From a virus (taxonomy: Duplodnaviria; Heunggongvirae; Uroviricota; Caudoviricetes): a stretch of DNA of 6,308 nucleotides. The notes beneath the pieces were generated by a model. That model saw only the letters and a list, made by a program, of their open reading frames with translations, made no database searches and had not been told where the DNA came from. Of this stretch, positions 3-6,308 are shown in pieces. A program made the translations under genes and the position numbers. Where the stretch lies: the IMG/VR virus record IMGVR_UViG_2671180405_000010, one strand, 5' to 3'. Each line of letters begins with the position of its first letter. Position 1 is the first letter of the stretch.

Positions 3-221
3 AGTCATCGGGCATTATCTGAACATAAAACACTACCAATAAGTTGGAGTCATTACCAAACGGTTGAAATGTATGCCGCTACTTACGGGTCCTGTAATCC
101 TCTGAATAAACCAGAGGGAAAAGATGATTTCGACAAAATTTACCGCTTCTTGGAGGACCGCTATATCAAAAGCTTAGAGGACGCAGGGATCAAATCCCCA
201 GTGAAGTCACCATTGTCCTGA
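3..221 (+). CDS. Possible 3' end of a plus-strand gene entering from the left edge (C-terminal fragment, hypothetical protein)
   Basis: Frame 3 is open from the window edge to TGA at 219-221 and the translation (..FDKIYRFLEDRYIKSLEDAGIKSPVKSPLS) looks protein-like. It overlaps the 3' end of the minus-strand ORF 190..567 by about 30 bp, so one of the two may be wrong. No start or RBS is visible for the full gene. Confidence 0.25.
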   Translation, partial: SHRALSEHKTLPISWSHYQTVEMYAATYGSCNPLNKPEGKDDFDKIYRFLEDRYIKSLEDAGIKSPVKSPLS

Positions 222-567
222 GAACTTGCAGAACGTCATGATCATAACTTCCATCCAAACCGCGACGGCGAATTGCTTCTCGTATTACCGGAAGCAGTTC
301 GCTGGAAATCTCGGTGCATATTTCACCTGATAATACGCTTGGCTCAAGTGAGAATATTGGTGAACTTACGGTCTTGGTCTCGACAGTTTCAGAGTCAGTG
401 CCAACATTATAAAGCTCAACGAAAGCGGTCTTGATTTTCCGGGCCAGATCTTTTGCTGGCTCGCTTGCAATATCTTTCCCGATTTCTCGCAGCACAGAAT
501 GCAATGTATGAGCTGCTGTTTTCTGTACATCAGACGGTAAATCTTTAAATTCCATCGTCAGCCTCAT
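190..567 (-). CDS. Hypothetical early-left protein (125 aa, or 121 aa from the ATG at 555)
   Basis: ORF from the six-frame track. Its start ATG (567..565) shares one base with the stop of the upstream ORF (TGATG). The in-frame ATG at 555..553 has GAGG 8 nt upstream, so it is the likelier start. Hydrophilic protein with no family I recognise. Confidence 0.55.
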   Translation of the reverse strand: MRLTMEFKDLPSDVQKTAAHTLHSVLREIGKDIASEPAKDLARKIKTAFVELYNVGTDSETVETKTVSSPIFSLEPSVLSGEICTEISSELLPVIREAIRRRGLDGSYDHDVLQVLRTMVTSLGI

Positions 568-773: not shown

Positions 774-899
774 AGTTAAAGATTGAACCCTGCCGTCATG
801 TTCTTACGCCTCGGGCTGGCTACTTAACCCCTGACCACTGTCTGGTAACTCGAAGTATTGCCCTGCATTCTGTGGGGCGGGGTGGGTTGACGCCTGAAA

Positions 900-945
900 C
901 AATAGCATCATTATTTTTTTTGATGTAAATAGCATCGCTATTGTT
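900..945. promoter_or_regulatory. Putative OL-like operator/promoter region: palindrome AATAGCATCGCTATT (930-944) plus a degenerate copy AATAGCATCATTATT (901-915)
   Basis: AATAGC / GCTATT inverted half-sites around a 3-bp centre. The same motif recurs in the repressor/cro intergenic region (2039-2053). Position is upstream of the leftward genes and just beyond the terminator of the repressor operon, as for lambda OL/pL. Confidence 0.35.
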
Positions 946-954
946 TTTTGTTGG

Positions 955-982
955 GGCAAGAAAAAACCACCCTAAGGTGGTT
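955..982 (-). terminator. Rho-independent terminator downstream of the toxin gene
   Basis: On the minus-strand transcript: 7-bp stem AACCACC / GGUGGUU with loop UUAG, followed by UUUUUUCUU. It lies 17 nt past the toxin stop codon (999-1001). Confidence 0.65.
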
Positions 983-998
983 CTGTCGGCGGGAATAA

Positions 999-1289
999 TT
1001 AACTGTTTTTGCCTGGATACTGTCTTCGAGAATGCACAATATTTACTACTTCTATGCTTGATGCTGTTACTCGGTAAAGGATGATGTAGTTAGGATGAGT
1101 TACAATTTCACGAAGACCAAGAACTCGCTCGCTTGGAGGATACAGGTAAGGATGCTCTGTGAGCGGCAAAACGGATGTTTCAATTCGAATTTTCATTCTG
1201 CGTGCTGCCGCGGGATTTTCTTTAGCTATGTAGGCTACGATCTGGCGCAAATCATCACGAGCAGATGGTAGCCATAAAACGGGTAACAT
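999..1289 (-). CDS. parE: Type II toxin, RelE/ParE superfamily (ParE2-like), 96 aa
   Basis: Translation (MLPVLWLPSARDDLRQIVAYI...EHPYLYPPSERVLGLREIVTHPNYIILYRV...) matches the ParE-family pattern as I recall it. Size is typical, and the start overlaps the antitoxin stop by one base (TAATG). Confidence 0.88.
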   Translation of the reverse strand: MLPVLWLPSARDDLRQIVAYIAKENPAAARRMKIRIETSVLPLTEHPYLYPPSERVLGLREIVTHPNYIILYRVTASSIEVVNIVHSRRQYPGKNS

Positions 1290-1483
1290 TATTCACCTCT
1301 GTGAGTTGCAGCAGCAATTTGGGCAATAATTTGTTCCATTTCCGCCATTACCTCATCATGCGGAATCGCCGGGCGGGGATCCGCGAGGCTTGCTGCTACT
1401 TTGGCCCGCAGCCATTCGTTGTAACTATTTTCTTGCTCAACTGTCTCAAATTCTGAAACCATTGGGGAAAGGACTGTACTCAT
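1289..1483 (-). CDS. paaA: Antitoxin of the ParE toxin (PaaA2-like), 64 aa
   Basis: Small acidic protein (..SPMVSEFETVEQENSYNEWLRAKVAASLADPRPAIPHDEV..) immediately upstream of and coupled to the toxin gene. AGGAG RBS 8 nt upstream of the ATG. Resembles the PaaA2 antitoxin of E. coli O157 prophages from memory. Confidence 0.82.
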   Translation of the reverse strand: MSTVLSPMVSEFETVEQENSYNEWLRAKVAASLADPRPAIPHDEVMAEMEQIIAQIAAATHRGE

Positions 1484-1502
1484 TTTACATATCTCCTCTG
1501 AT

Positions 1503-2003
1503 TTAGGCGCGACGGCCTTTTTGTGCAGCTAACCACCGCGCAACCGTACGATCCATTGATTCTTTTTTATCTTTCATCTCCTGAAGCATGTGTTCTTGAT
1601 CTTCTTTCGGAAAAGCTCTGAACGTATGGATTAAATCTCGTTCCATCGGCTCTACGGCAAACGGTAGTTCATCCTCTGTTTGTTCTGTGTCTGCTGGTAA
1701 TGCGACTATGTTATCTTGCTGTGGTTCTCGACAATACATCCTTGCAATTTGCAGCAAATCTACCATGTCTGGCCTGATTGACTCAGGGGGAACTTTCAGT
1801 AAGCCAGCAAACTTTAGAACAGCCTCAAGGTTTAGTGGGGTTTGACCATTTAGGTAGTGACTTACCGCCCCTTGTGTTGAAAACCCCATAATTTCCGCCG
1901 CACGTTCCTGAGTCAATCCCAACTGAGATTTCTTTGCCATCCAGATTTCTTTCAGTCTTCTGGCGGCGTTGAGGTCGGTGTCTGACAATGATTTTCTTTT
2001 CAT
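1503..2003 (-). CDS. paaR: cI-like prophage repressor with XRE-type HTH (PaaR2/RacR-like), regulator of the downstream TA pair
   Basis: HTH signature (LGLTQERAAEIMGFSTQGAVSHYLNG). Same strand as and 19 nt upstream of the antitoxin gene; divergent from the Cro-like gene. Start chosen at ATG 2003..2001 (MKRKSLSD...); the track ORF extends to a GTG at 2033 with no RBS. No obvious S24 peptidase Ser/Lys domain. Confidence 0.8.
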   Translation of the reverse strand: MKRKSLSDTDLNAARRLKEIWMAKKSQLGLTQERAAEIMGFSTQGAVSHYLNGQTPLNLEAVLKFAGLLKVPPESIRPDMVDLLQIARMYCREPQQDNIVALPADTEQTEDELPFAVEPMERDLIHTFRAFPKEDQEHMLQEMKDKKESMDRTVARWLAAQKGRRA

Positions 2004-2038
2004 ACATCCAATTCTAATAAGATTGCTAATCACTTTGA

Positions 2039-2078
2039 AATAGCATCACTATTTACTTTTAAAAATAACAGTGCTATT
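2039..2078. promoter_or_regulatory. Putative OR-like operators: AATAGCATCACTATT (2039-2053) and related AATAACAGTGCTATT (2064-2078), with divergent promoters
   Basis: Palindromic half-sites AATAG / CTATT in the 111-bp gap between the divergent repressor and Cro-like genes. Candidate rightward promoter: -35 TTTACT (2052-2057), 17-nt spacer, -10 TATTAA (2075-2080). Confidence 0.4.
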
Positions 2079-2114
2079 AATTATGCATTGGTAACACATC
2101 ACATAGGGCGGATT

Positions 2115-2378
2115 ATGAATCTTGGAGAATATTTGCATCATTTTCATATAACCCAGAGTTCATTTGCTGAGATTGTTGGCGCATCCCAAGGGATGGTCAG
2201 CCACGTTATAACGGGGCGTGCAAAACTTACAGGAGAAAAAATATTACGTTGGTGTGAAGCAACGGGATGGGTGGTGACCCCACATGAGATTGACAGTAAA
2301 ACCTACCCCAACCCAACTGACGGCTTGCCTGCTGAGTTTCAGGCTAACACACAACCATCGGCGGGGGTTGATTCATGA
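2115..2378 (+). CDS. ydaS: Cro-like HTH regulator (YdaS-like), about 87 aa
   Basis: Divergent from the repressor. HTH-like segment (SQSSFAEIVGASQGMVSHVITGRAKL). ATG at 2115 has AGGG 6 nt upstream; the track ORF starts at a TTG at 2088. Stop overlaps the next gene's start (ATGA). Confidence 0.75.
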   Translation: MNLGEYLHHFHITQSSFAEIVGASQGMVSHVITGRAKLTGEKILRWCEATGWVVTPHEIDSKTYPNPTDGLPAEFQANTQPSAGVDS

Positions 2379-2800
2379 AAATCAAGCATGAACACATCCG
2401 CATGGCGATGAAAGCCTGGGCGCATCCGGACGGTGAAAAAGTTCCGGCAGCTGAAATAACCAGGGTTTATTTCGAACTGGGAATGACGTTTCCGGTTCTG
2501 CATAACGACAGCAAGCACAACACGCTTTATCTCAACACCCAAAAGATTTTCCGTTGGCTGGATAAAGACACCCCTGACGCTGTTGAAAAAATTCAGGCGT
2601 TGTTACCTGCGATCGAAAGGGCAATGCCACCTCCGCTGGTGGCTCGAATGCGCAGCCACAGTTCAGCTTATTTTCGGGAACTGGTGGAGACGCATGAACG
2701 ACTGGTGAGAGACGCTGATGATTTTGTCGCAGTGGCAATCGCCGGTTTCAATCAGATGAACCGTGGTGGCCCGGCAGGAAATGCTGTGGCAGTACATTGA
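2375..2800 (+). CDS. ydaT: YdaT-like protein (cII-like regulator, formerly annotated as a toxin), 141 aa
   Basis: N-terminus MKIKHEHI... matches Rac prophage YdaT as I recall it. Position directly after the Cro-like gene with a 4-bp overlap. Confidence 0.8.
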   Translation: MKIKHEHIRMAMKAWAHPDGEKVPAAEITRVYFELGMTFPVLHNDSKHNTLYLNTQKIFRWLDKDTPDAVEKIQALLPAIERAMPPPLVARMRSHSSAYFRELVETHERLVRDADDFVAVAIAGFNQMNRGGPAGNAVAVH

Positions 2801-2871
2801 CTGACAATAGCCATATCGAATCGCTCCCGGCAACTCGTGAGTAAAAAGATTCGGTATCAGAAGAGGTGAGT

Positions 2872-3936
2872 ATGGCTAACGCCTGGCTCAGATTATGGCA
2901 TGACATGCCAAATGACCCTAAGTGGCGAACAATTGCCAGGGTGTCAGGGCAGCCAATTGCAACAGTGATGGCAGTGTATATCCACCTCCTGGTGAGCGCG
3001 TCACGAAATGTCACGCGAGGTCACATTGATGTCACGACAGAAGATTTGGCAAGTGCGCTCGACGTGACAGAAGAGGTAATTGATTCAATTTTGCAGACGA
3101 TGCAGGGGCGGGTACTTGATGGTGATTTAATCACTGGATGGGAAAAACGCCAGGTGCTTAAAGAGGACAACGGCAATATTTCGCAAACCGCAAAATCTCC
3201 TGCAGAGCGCAAGAGGGCGCAGCGAGAGAGGGAAAGAAAGCGGGAACAAAATGGCGATTGTCACGGCGCGTCACGAAATGTCACGCACATGTCACGACGA
3301 GTCACGACAGATACAGATAAAGATACAGATAAAGAAGATCAAAACACTATGGTCCATGGCGTAAAAAACGCCACGAACCAGGCAGGGGATGTTCAGACCG
3401 TCAATCCTGGTCAGCCAGCAGGCTCGACACCGGAAGCCGATTCAGCGTATGCGCTGAAAGCCGATTCGGGCGCTGTGCAGCAGGTGATGACCGCAAGGCC
3501 GGAGCAATCACTCCAACTGCAGCAGCCTGAAGCCGATTCCGCCATTCAGCGGGAAGCCGATCGGGTAGCCCCGGAAAACACCGGGCAGCCTGTGGGACGA
3601 GTGGATTATCCGGATGTGTTCGAACAGGTCTGGCGGGAATACCCGTTGCGTGCCGGGGCAAACCCGAAGAAATCCGCATTCAGTGCCTGGAAGGCCAGAT
3701 TGCGCGAGGGGGTGCCACCAGAGACCATGCTGGATGGTGTGAGGCGTTACGCGAGATACCTGGCGGCGACCGGGAAAGCGGGAACGGAATTTGTTCAGCG
3801 AGCGACGACGTTTTTTGGGCCGGACCGGAATTTTGAAAACCCCTGGTTGCTCCCGGTAAGCGGCACGAACAACCAGCGTTGTGTGAATCATATTTCTGAA
3901 CCGGATACCGAAATTCCGCCGGGATTCAGGGGGTGA
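2872..3936 (+). CDS. ydaU: Phage replisome organizer / replication initiation protein (YdaU-like, lambda O analogue), about 354 aa
   Basis: ATG at 2872 with AAGAGG RBS 5 nt upstream. N-terminal region (WLRLWHDMPNDPKWRTIARVSG...) resembles phage replisome-organizer DNA-binding domains; C-terminal region (..VWREYPLRAGANPKKSAFSAWKARL..) resembles a conserved phage replication C-terminal domain. Contains internal DNA repeats and is followed 6 nt later by a DnaC-like gene. Confidence 0.85.
   Translation: MANAWLRLWHDMPNDPKWRTIARVSGQPIATVMAVYIHLLVSASRNVTRGHIDVTTEDLASALDVTEEVIDSILQTMQGRVLDGDLITGWEKRQVLKEDNGNISQTAKSPAERKRAQRERERKREQNGDCHGASRNVTHMSRRVTTDTDKDTDKEDQNTMVHGVKNATNQAGDVQTVNPGQPAGSTPEADSAYALKADSGAVQQVMTARPEQSLQLQQPEADSAIQREADRVAPENTGQPVGRVDYPDVFEQVWREYPLRAGANPKKSAFSAWKARLREGVPPETMLDGVRRYARYLAATGKAGTEFVQRATTFFGPDRNFENPWLLPVSGTNNQRCVNHISEPDTEIPPGFRG
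2996..3334. repeat. Iteron-like array inside the organizer gene: nine GTCACG/GTCACA hexamers in two clusters plus a tandem 12-bp A-rich repeat
   Basis: GTCACG at 3000, 3010, 3031, 3260, 3270, 3280, 3291, 3301 and GTCACA at 3020, spaced 10-11 bp. A perfect 21-bp direct repeat GCGCGTCACGAAATGTCACGC occurs at 2996-3016 and 3266-3286. ATACAGATAAAG is tandemly repeated at 3311-3334. Confidence 0.55.
3433..3563. repeat. Four copies of GAAGCCGAT(T)C within the organizer gene linker
   Basis: Copies at 3433-3443, 3457-3467, 3529-3539 and 3553-3563 (last copy imperfect). Spacings are 24, 72 and 24 bp, all in frame, encoding E/K-A-D-S/R peptide repeats. Confidence 0.4.
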
Positions 3937-5436: not shown

Positions 5437-5451
5437 TTGCCGGGGGCGCTT

Positions 5452-5833
5452 ATGGCAAAAGTATTTACACAGGAAGAGCGGGAAAAAATTAAGGGGCAGG
5501 TTGTTGAACTCGTACGCCAGAGTGGGCGCGAGACGTTACGACAACTGGAAGCTAAAACCGGGGCGACAAGATATTTAATAAGCGTTCTCGCCAGAGAGCT
5601 GGTTGCCAGTGGGGATGTATACAACTCTGGCTACGGGTTATTCCCGTCTGAACAGGCTCGTAAGGACTGGCAAAACGCCCGCAAAAAACTCTCGAGGGCA
5701 AAGCTGAAGAAACCATCTGTGGTTGATCCGGACCTTATCTGGTCATTACCAGACGGAGAAATACGCCGCTACGACAGACATCAGAACATAATCTGTCGCG
5801 AGTGCCGGAAGAGTGAAGTTATGCAGCGTGTAC
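5452..5833 (+). CDS. Hypothetical protein, 5' portion; interrupted by the N-run and possibly continuing to a stop at 6181-6183
   Basis: ATG at 5452 (MAKVFTQEEREKIKGQ...), 15 nt after the previous stop. The reading frame is open up to the N-run. If the N-run length is accurate, the frame reconnects to ...GFLSG and a TAA at 6181-6183. Contains a CxxC motif (CRECRK) just before the gap. Confidence 0.55.
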
Positions 5834-6165
5834 NNNNNNNNNNNNNNNNNNNNNNNNNNNNNNNNNNNNNNNNNNNNNNNNNNNNNNNNNNNNNNNNNNN
5901 NNNNNNNNNNNNNNNNNNNNNNNNNNNNNNNNNNNNNNNNNNNNNNNNNNNNNNNNNNNNNNNNNNNNNNNNNNNNNNNNNNNNNNNNNNNNNNNNNNNN
6001 NNNNNNNNNNNNNNNNNNNNNNNNNNNNNNNNNNNNNNNNNNNNNNNNNNNNNNNNNNNNNNNNNNNNNNNNNNNNNNNNNNNNNNNNNNNNNNNNNNNN
6101 NNNNNNNNNNNNNNNNNNNNNNNNNNNNNNNNNNNNNNNNNNNNNNNNNNNNNNNNNNNNNNNNN
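5834..6165. other. Run of 332 N (assembly gap or masked sequence)
   Basis: Directly visible in the sequence. It lies inside an apparent CDS. Confidence 1.
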
Positions 6166-6308
6166 GGCTTTCTATCAGGGTAATTTTCAGAAGGTGCTGT
6201 TGTGAGCCAAATTAACAATCGGAACTTCGTGAAGAGAAAGCATAATCCAAAATCTGAATAATTAAGTTCAGCACTGTGGTGATGCTGCCAACTTACTGAT
6301 TTAGTGTA

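Follow-up and report, generated by a model that had tools for sequence, protein, structure and literature searches.

The present analysis concerns a three-gene array found on the minus strand of a 6,308-nucleotide (nt) stretch of viral DNA (Caudoviricetes; IMG/VR record IMGVR_UViG_2671180405_000010), hereafter the window, meaning this whole stretch at its full length. In this array, a gene coding for a helix-turn-helix (HTH) repressor is followed by the paaA antitoxin gene and the parE toxin gene. An array of this kind, paaR2-paaA2-parE2, was described by Jurenas et al. in 2021 in the immunity region of CP-933P, an Escherichia coli O157:H7 cryptic prophage (PMC8630535). The leftward array of the window, with the domains of the repressor and the terminator that follows parE, comprises the following elements (lengths in amino acids, aa):

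1503..2003, minus strand: immunity repressor, 166 aa, assigned through HTH_3 (Pfam), PDB and AlphaFold/Foldseek
~1725..2003, minus strand: repressor N-domain, lambda-cI-like and five-helix, residues 1-93, from AlphaFold and Foldseek
~1671..1724, minus strand: disordered linker of the repressor, residues 94-111, from AlphaFold
~1506..1670, minus strand: C-terminal helix-turn-long-helix segment of the repressor, common to PaaR1, PaaR2 and DicA, from alignment and model
1289..1483, minus strand: paaA, PaaA-family antitoxin of 64 aa without a DNA-binding domain, assigned through Pfam, NCBIfam and PDB
999..1289, minus strand: parE, ParE-family toxin of 96 aa, assigned through Pfam, PDB and relatives
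958..984, minus strand: intrinsic terminator closing the repressor-paaA-parE transcript, with a 9-bp stem (963..984), a UUAG loop and a U-run

An earlier interpretation of this DNA, the sequence-only reading, had proposed three co-directional genes separated by a 19-nt gap and then a 1-bp overlap, and this layout is what the open reading frame (ORF) listing and the sequence hold. The gap between the repressor stop and the antitoxin start (1484..1502) contains a GAGGAGA ribosome-binding site, and the antitoxin stop and the toxin start share a single base at 1289 (TAATG); the end of paaA contains a GAGGTG ribosome-binding site. The repressor ORF spans 1503..2033, which gives 176 aa from a GTG and 166 aa from the ATG at 2003. 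The latter is taken as the repressor start and the GTG at 2033 only as the mechanical start of the ORF, since RefSeq uses the ATG at 2003, the alignment of the N-terminal arm to lambda cI begins at residue 2, and this position suits the arrangement of promoters and operators. The regulator gene lies directly upstream of paaA-parE and a single terminator follows parE, an arrangement that RefSeq annotates identically in the prophage of E. coli FDAARGOS_944 (locus L001). This terminator begins 15 nt past the parE stop and consists of the 9-bp stem followed by UUUUUUCUU; its centroid energy was -14.3 kcal/mol, and the z-score of the whole 71-nt segment was -2.1. A hairpin with a T-run was found at the same position in all relatives, its sequence differing in other immunity types. 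A simple terminator scanner missed 958..984, probably because the stem reaches into the U-run. The terminator announced by the sequence-only reading does exist, then, but at this z-score it is better called canonical than strong.

The identity of the two cargo genes was established by similarity. The 96-aa protein matched the Pfam family PF05016 (ParE_toxin) along its entire profile (64.1 bits, cutoff 23, E = 1.8e-17; positions 1-89 of 89), NCBIfam TIGR02385 (29.3 bits, cutoff 27.9) and, over residues 1-93, the solved ParE2 toxin (PDB 5CW7_B; E = 6.7e-37, 67% identity). The 64-aa protein matched PF21217 (PaaA2; 81.9 bits, cutoff 27, E = 3e-23), NCBIfam NF050103 (94 bits, cutoff 50) and the solved PaaA2 (PDB 3ZBE; E = 1.4e-23), so that the ParE and PaaA2-family assignments, first made without any search, have now passed the similarity check proposed for them. 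No HTH, ribbon-helix-helix or AbrB domain was matched in PaaA by the Pfam and NCBIfam scans. PaaA is encoded immediately upstream of the ParE gene, its residues 5-45 are nearly invariant between subtypes, and the tail of the window protein is of the type found in L003 (ATCC 43894, the second O157:H7 copy), not of the PaaA2 type. By homology to ParE2, the toxin is expected to be toxic and to be neutralised by PaaA. It was reported that ParE2 induces the SOS response, its target being not yet identified, that PaaA2 has no DNA-binding domain, and that paaR2-paaA2-parE2 is an operon down-regulated by PaaR2 (PMC8630535).

The repressor was also recognised as cI-like in its DNA-binding part, as had been supposed. 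Its residues 2-81 aligned with the N-terminal domain (NTD) of lambda cI (1LMB) in the PDB search with E = 2.9e-9. The AlphaFold model, built on 26 homologues, showed a five-helix N-domain with confidence at residues 8-91 (predicted local distance difference test, pLDDT, 86-94), followed by a short and then a long helix at residues 119-165. In Foldseek, the N-domain matched the NTD of lambda cI at 37-40% identity, with TMt 0.81-0.93 and a root-mean-square deviation of 1.1-2.1 Å. The residues aligned with E34 and D38 of lambda cI, which form its positive-control patch, are both acidic in the window (E33, E37). The recognition helix differs from that of lambda cI and carries one inserted residue, as would fit an operator specificity unlike that of lambda. 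No Peptidase_S24 domain was matched in the repressor by Pfam, and past residue 93 the model contains only the linker and the two helices. The protein is not a member of the LexA/cI S24 family, though it holds the same functional position, and RecA-stimulated self-cleavage is therefore not expected; PaaR2 was likewise reported to lack it (PMC8630535).

The operators recognised by such a protein were sought around the divergent promoters and beyond parE. The control elements, together with the divergent arm, are the following:

901..942, no strand assigned: OL-like operator pair, AATAGCATCATTATT (901-915) and AATAGCATCGCTATT (928-942), repeat family D1
2016-2030, no strand assigned: OR3-like operator AATAAGATTGCTAAT, weak, from motif and conservation
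2039-2053, no strand assigned: OR2-like operator AATAGCATCACTATT, from motif and conservation
2064-2078, no strand assigned: OR1-like operator AATAACAGTGCTATT, from motif and conservation
2011..2039, minus strand: PRM-like promoter from the promoter scan, with -35 TTCAAA (2039..2034) and -10 TAGAAT (2016..2011)
2052..2080, plus strand: putative PR-like promoter, read by eye, with -35 TTTACT, a 17-nt spacer and TGcTATTAA
899..930, minus strand: putative PL-like leftward promoter, read by eye, with -35 TTTACA (930..925) and extended -10 TGcTATTGT (907..899)
2115..2378, plus strand: Cro analogue, an 87-aa HTH protein, from a weak Pfam HTH_3 match and the 264-nt RefSeq form
2375..2800, plus strand: ydaT, functional analogue of CII, assigned through Pfam YdaT_toxin and PDB
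2368..2385, no strand assigned: YdaT operator (OM equivalent) TTGATTCATGAAAATCAA, an exact match to the published motif

The palindrome AATAGC-N3-GCTATT occurred four times in the window with up to two mismatches, against 0.17 expected, and none of 200 shuffles reached four. All four of these sites fall in the two control regions, the third OR site (2016-2030) being weaker. The correct spacer is 3 nt: a pattern with a 4-nt spacer, ATAGC-N4-GCTAT, had no matches in the window. The three OR sites are spaced 23 and 25 bp from centre to centre.

These sites were followed through the E. coli loci compared with the window by alignment of proteins and of sequence, which include L001-L008, L045 and L046. 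In four relatives of the same type (L002, L006, L007, L008), the OR and OL sites were kept, with invariant half-sites and variable centres. Loci whose repressors carry other N-domains displayed unrelated palindromes at both OR and OL. L003 and L005 carried CAATAAAAAACTGT...ACAGTTTTTTATTG; L004 (ATCC 25922) carried the published TTTAGTAA/CACTAAAC repeats, its type reproducing the published GTTTAGTAA repeats; and L046 (E. coli OkiPb01714) carried a fourth operator type, with ACACTTT/AAAGTGT palindromes at OR and OL. Among the computational results, this co-variation of the N-domain with both operator sets speaks most strongly for the 166-aa protein as the immunity repressor acting at OR and OL.

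The promoters are interleaved with these operators. Both hexamers of the PRM-like promoter were kept in all five window-type loci, and its -10 element lies 7 nt from the A of the ATG at 2003. A leaderless repressor mRNA is thus predicted, in a geometry close to that of the leaderless paaR2 mRNA (PMC8630535). The centre of the OR2-like site lies ~43 bp upstream of the predicted start. The PR-like promoter is overlapped by the OR2-like and OR1-like sites and is conserved in relatives. It shares with the PL-like promoter an organisation in which a TTTAC(T/A) -35 element overlaps one operator and a TGcTATT extended -10 element lies inside the next (inverted repeat I1). The PL-like promoter, analogous to PL933P of CP-933P (PMC8630535), would transcribe ydfA (DUF1391) and what lies past it. 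Just beyond parE and the terminator there is thus a second pair of operators with a putative leftward promoter, an arrangement that agrees with the rexAB position that the sequence-only reading had assigned to the toxin-antitoxin (TA) pair. The promoter scan reported neither the PR-like nor the PL-like promoter, the reason given for the former being that the scan demands a T at position 6 of the -10 element. Since the scans missed them, both promoters, as well as the terminator, rest on manual reading and conservation.

On the other side of OR, the divergent pair had been read as Cro/cII-like, and it proved to consist of an HTH Cro analogue and of YdaT, the published analogue of CII. The 87-aa protein scored 20.5 bits against Pfam HTH_3, below the cutoff of 23, and the PDB search found no solved relative of it. 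Its N-terminal HTH part is ~30% identical to those of other immunity types, and its C-terminal tail (TPHEI..YPNPTDGLP) is common to them. YdaT matched the CP-933P protein (PDB 8BT1; E = 3.1e-70) and 3C4R (E = 4e-79), its identity between immunity types being 77-87%. According to Prolic-Kalinsek et al. (2023), the YdaT operator is 5'-TTGATT-N6-AATCAA-3', at the end of ydaS (PMC9986795). An exact copy occurred once in the window (0.04 expected), where cro meets ydaT, and spans the start codon of the latter. Position 2368 is T in the window, as in the TTGATT consensus, and G in the 99%-identical locus L001.

The relatives of the window revealed how these elements are combined. The 99%-identical stretch of E. 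coli FDAARGOS_944 lies in a defective lambdoid prophage integrated next to tRNA-Ser/mtfA. RefSeq annotates int, exo, dicB and ydfABC to its left, and genes for replication, Q, lysis and the head to its right. DNA resembling paaA-parE was found in 842 of 5426 complete E. coli genomes, the whole window-type locus in 72 at ~80% identity and in 2-3 at 99% or more. In one group, found in O145:H28 and other strains, ParE is 87% (87.5% in the O145 relative) and PaaA 86% identical to the window proteins. Sliding identity to L003 and L005 changed sharply along the region:

567-866, ydfA and leader: 78-98%
867-1046, OL, terminator and parE 3' end: 45-65%
1047-1646, parE, paaA and repressor C-terminal segment: 65-90%
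1647-2306, repressor N-domain, OR and N-terminal part of cro: 7-70%, mostly below 55%
from 2367, YdaT site and ydaT: 63-100%, with 93-98% at the YdaT site

Against L004, identity within the TA genes was lower (33-88%). Homology thus drops precisely over the block of repressor N-domain, OR and cro N-domain (~1647-2306) and over OL (~867-1046), and parE, paaA, the C-terminal segment of the repressor and ydaT keep 65-98%. This pattern is that of a classical immunity-region exchange, in which the sequence places one break inside the repressor gene and another inside cro, the TA cargo staying homologous. The ratio of nonsynonymous to synonymous divergence (dN/dS) against relatives was ~0.05 for parE and ~0.05-0.09 for paaA, the range for parE, paaA and the repressor together being 0.05-0.13, and 0.11-0.14 for the Cro analogue, with dS around or above 1. 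All four tested genes are maintained under strong purifying selection.

The repressor is itself a composite. The second O157:H7 copy, from which PaaR1 takes its name, was reportedly designated paaR1-paaA1-parE1 by Hallez et al. in 2010. Alignment of the window repressor with the L003-type and PaaR2 repressors showed that only the last ~45 residues are common (...FRAFPKEDQEHMLQEMKDKKESMDRTVARWLAAQKGRRA), the N-terminal DNA-binding domain being unlike that of either PaaR1 or PaaR2. Twenty-five columns are invariant, and most of them lie in the C-terminal segment shared with the L003 and L004 repressors. The PaaR2 NTD structures 7NKV and 8C3K were not returned by the PDB search, and a plain PaaR2 orthologue was ruled out, as the N-domains are unrelated in sequence and only the C-terminus is common. 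A plain cI was likewise ruled out, by the lack of an S24 domain and by the different, helical C-terminus. The DicA family (NCBIfam NF007257) was matched at positions 74-130 only, with 32.4 bits against a cutoff of 101 (E = 7e-8), and no full-length match above this cutoff was obtained. Among sequenced phages, no close relative of the repressor was found, the best match being lambda cI at 31%; the protein is identical to Shigella sonnei entries, so that S. sonnei is the probable source of the window.

Longer relatives were also observed. Proteins P0013-P0023, of 240-255 aa (loci L047 and L048), contain tandem HTH domains, lambda-cI-like and then PaaR1-like, before the common C-terminal segment. 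The 166-aa form may stem from the loss of the internal HTH of the 244-aa tandem form; alternatively, a fusion may have produced the long form. In L045 (E. coli 2013C-4974), two repressor genes in tandem, PaaR2-like (123 aa) and PaaR1-like (153 aa), stand upstream of paaA-parE at 2932-3795, and the PaaR1-like repressor has an altered C-terminal end that overlaps paaA. This locus looks like a recombination intermediate between immunity types. In L046, a PaaR1-like repressor of 132 aa is paired with a ParE2-like TA pair, a combination indicating that TA subtype and repressor type reassort independently. Since the C-terminal segment accompanies paaA-parE whichever of at least four DNA-binding N-domains precedes it, it might do more than mediate oligomerisation and serve as a docking site for feedback of the PaaA-ParE complex on the switch, a split form of the conditional cooperativity known from classical TA systems. 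This idea is speculative and improbable; if true, docking would tie the choice between lysis and lysogeny to the TA balance.

The identity and layout of the genes, the operator motifs that co-vary with the N-domain, the YdaT site and the signs of purifying selection were all observed directly in these sequences. In a lambdoid prophage of the Rac/Qin/CP-933 kind, the region is very probably the immunity module, the switch between lysis and lysogeny, with the repressor controlling its own operon, paaA-parE included. In the proposed mechanism, a leftward operon transcribed from the PRM-like promoter would produce the maintenance repressor, PaaA and ParE, a member of the gyrase-poisoning family, and would end at the intrinsic terminator. 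The repressor, bound to the 15-bp AATAGC-N3-GCTATT palindromes (three at OR, two at OL), would shut off the PR-like and PL-like early-lytic promoters, and would sustain and, at high level, limit the transcription of its own operon and hence of paaA-parE. The Cro analogue would compete for the same operators, and YdaT, acting at the cro/ydaT-junction site, would give an alternative leftward start for establishment. PaaA would neutralise ParE by direct binding, the pair being cargo in the slot occupied by rexAB in lambda. Because PaaA is predicted to be unable to bind DNA, the pair would depend on the phage switch for its transcription. That the three genes form one repressor-regulated transcript is suggested by the 19-nt gap, by the operators lying over the PRM-like promoter and by the experiments on CP-933P. 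For the binding partners, the leaderless start, activation, looping mediated by the C-terminal segment, toxicity and addiction, this mechanism draws on CP-933P and lambda, which the window system would resemble in these respects. By the same analogy, the most likely role of the pair would be addiction, stabilising the immunity region or the prophage.

Several points weigh against this interpretation. Its experimental support comes from the homologous CP-933P system and not from the variant of the window, and the biochemistry of PaaR2 would carry over by analogy only, the N-domains being unrelated in sequence. In CP-933P, ParE2 activity was not detected in either state of the switch (PMC8630535). 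The consensus promoter scan of positions 700-2500 found three promoters against 3.1 expected, which is not above chance. The PL-like spacer is 19 nt in the window versus 17 nt in L001 and the 80% relatives. The OL operators are correspondingly 27 bp apart in the window versus 25 bp in those loci, and the T-run between them (907-916) is T8 in the window and T6 in L001; the T8 run reflects either an error in sequencing the homopolymer or a genuine change, which would make the leftward promoter weaker. A promoter within the repressor gene also has to be allowed for, and pairs found outside enterics stand without such a repressor, so that the pair must be able to use another promoter.

The position of the pair bears on a first alternative, in which paaA-parE is chiefly a device of superinfection exclusion or abortive infection, a functional analogue of RexAB. 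Such a role is compatible with the architecture, and the pair does sit in the rexAB slot, as judged from the published comparison (PMC9986795) and from the operators described here. Relatives with the same N-domain carry other genes in this slot. In Salmonella enterica subsp. diarizonae (L049 and L050), genes for the HigB toxin and a HigA-like HTH protein come after a repressor of 154 aa that has this N-domain (47% identity), from which it follows that the slot after the repressor gene holds interchangeable toxin modules. The 244-aa tandem-HTH repressor of L047 and L048 is followed by HipA_2 (PF20613) and DUF3037, YdaT and an HTH gene remaining on the divergent side. Replacement by HigB-HigA and HipA_2-DUF3037 is typical of exchangeable defence or accessory cargo, and the slot may be a general exchange point for toxin or defence cargo (ParE, HigB, HipA_2, Rex) that reports the lysogenic state. 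However, no PADLOC defence model matched ParE, PaaA, the repressor or YdaT, and the two cargo proteins, PaaA and ParE by Pfam, have no RexA/RexB homology, operon position alone being common. The published data also favour stabilisation of plasmids (addiction), with no activation of ParE2 in either switch state (PMC8630535). A chiefly exclusionary role is, on this evidence, rather unlikely.

A second alternative holds that paaA-parE is an autonomous type II module, transcribed from its own promoter in the 3' part of the repressor gene and outside the control of the phage switch. A scan of one genome per species found paaA-parE in 36 further loci (L009-L044), in Bartonella, Acetobacteraceae, Sphingomonadales, Burkholderiales and others, with parE directly downstream of paaA in all 36. 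None of these loci contained a homologue of the repressor, Cro or YdaT, which indicates that the pair can be expressed without this repressor. No third component was found outside enterics, the upstream genes being heterogeneous when judged by eye (e.g. Rep-like, metabolic). These non-enteric copies are bare two-gene cassettes, often on short, plasmid-like contigs, and they support the published idea of a two-gene cassette inserted into a lambdoid immunity region. Yet PaaA has no DNA-binding domain, the 19-nt gap holds just a ribosome-binding site, and the pair stands between the repressor gene and the terminator/OL in every E. coli locus examined. The PaaR2-mediated down-regulation of the paaR2-paaA2-parE2 operon (PMC8630535) speaks in the same direction. 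Full autonomy of the pair in the window is improbable.

A decaying remnant without current function is the least credible account, even though the L001 prophage is defective (frameshifts or insertion sequences disrupt its Q, terminase and portal genes) and CP-933P is also cryptic (PMC8630535), for the three ORFs are intact and full length, their dN/dS values are low, and operators, promoter hexamers and the YdaT site are conserved. All three alternatives are weaker than the interpretation of the region as an immunity switch whose repressor also controls paaA-parE.

The surroundings of this switch are mosaic as well. Pfam identified DUF1391/ydfA in the left flank of the window and, in the right flank, a DUF1627 gene together with replication genes of the O-like and DnaC-like types. 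The flanks of L001 differ, with ydfB/ydfC on the left and ECs1072 and a different O-like gene on the right, and such differences around a 99%-identical core indicate that the window itself is mosaic. Two ORFs had no Pfam match: one of 125 aa at 190-567 (minus strand), and one of 356 aa at 2866-3936 (plus strand), in the position of the replication O gene. An N run at ~5830-6170 interrupts the ORF starting at 5437. The leader between the PL-like promoter and ydfA (~775-898, minus strand; ~120 nt) is 92-97% conserved in all immunity types, including a CCCACCCCGCCCCAC tract. A structured leader RNA was considered here and dropped, as the segment folded no better than shuffled sequences (z = -0.1), and an Rfam scan of the whole window, judged by E-value, gave chance-level matches only and no known RNA.

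The wider significance lies in the way these parts are exchanged. While the C-terminal segment and the YdaT/CII arm stay constant, the N-domains of the repressors, the operators and the toxin cargo are reshuffled around them as separate modules. The result is a natural data set for the origin of heteroimmune prophages and for the question of whether a TA pair guards the immunity region against replacement. The true homology of the N-domain to lambda cI makes the lambda rules (operator order, positive control, looping) testable in a switch that bears a TA pair. The current picture is unchanged, most of the first interpretation being already in the literature.

Compared with known systems, the window shares with the dicA region of Qin in E. 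coli K-12 the C-terminus of the repressor and leftward genes of the ydfA(DUF1391)-ydfB-ydfC-dicB families. It differs in the N-domain, and its repressor scores far below the DicA family cutoff. Qin is not known to carry a TA pair in the interval from dicA to the promoter of ydfA. With lambda, it shares a homologous repressor N-domain (~39% identity) with acidic residues at the E34/D38 positions, a set of three OR sites spaced by 23-25 bp, an OL set apart from them by two cargo genes and a terminator, and a cro gene in divergent orientation with an activator of the CII type after it. Unlike lambda, the window has no S24 autocleavage domain and ends its repressor in a helical C-terminus of ~47 residues, carries PaaA-ParE in place of RexAB, entrusts the CII role to YdaT (POU-like fold), and has another operator sequence and an OL of two detectable sites ~1.1 kb from OR.

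The closest published organisation is that of CP-933P. In this prophage, PaaR2 was reported as a CI analogue translated from a leaderless mRNA, which binds repeats in the 97-bp paaR2-ydaS region; YdaS and YdaT as analogues of Cro and CII; and the PL933P promoter, with OL operators, as lying beyond the TA genes, the locus being bistable and the module addictive (PMC8630535). It was also stated that paaA2-parE2 "replace rexA and rexB" (PMC9986795). The regulation of switch and toxin by one repressor and the replacement of rexAB are thus already published for CP-933P (PMC8630535, PMC9986795), and the reading of the window in these terms is supported and not new. CP-933P (Sp12) and the window agree in gene order and orientation, in OL/PL past parE and in the YdaT operator at the cro/ydaT junction. 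They agree as well in the DUF1391/dicB genes to the left and the O/DnaC-like genes to the right, in an antitoxin without a DNA-binding domain, in a repressor without S24 and with the same C-terminal segment, and in a geometry compatible with a leaderless start. CP-933P alleles are also present in L004, where ParE2 does not differ from the PDB sequence and the 123-aa repressor, which begins with MQKKE, is PaaR2. Against these alleles, ParE and PaaA of the window are ~67% identical, the repressor has 166 versus 123 aa and an unrelated N-domain, the operators are AATAGC-N3-GCTATT instead of the GTTTAGTAA repeats, and the Cro analogue is ~30% identical. The match to PaaR2-PaaA2-ParE2 proposed by the sequence-only reading consequently stands for the three-gene organisation but not for PaaR2 orthology, which fails outside the C-terminal ~45 residues and in the operators, and the TA pair is nearer to the other O157 copy.

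That copy, found in L003, has the closest characterised TA alleles (ParE 83%, PaaA 78%, with the same PaaA tail) and shares the C-terminal segment of the repressor and the tail of the Cro analogue. It differs in having a 133-aa repressor with another HTH N-domain and operators of its own. The second O157:H7 copy was reported to lie on CP-933M (PMC8630535), and by elimination L003, of which L005 is a relative, would be this copy. Beside these two O157 systems, what is new in the window is a further immunity specificity for PaaR-PaaA-ParE prophage systems, with a DNA-binding domain of the lambda cI type and its own operators.

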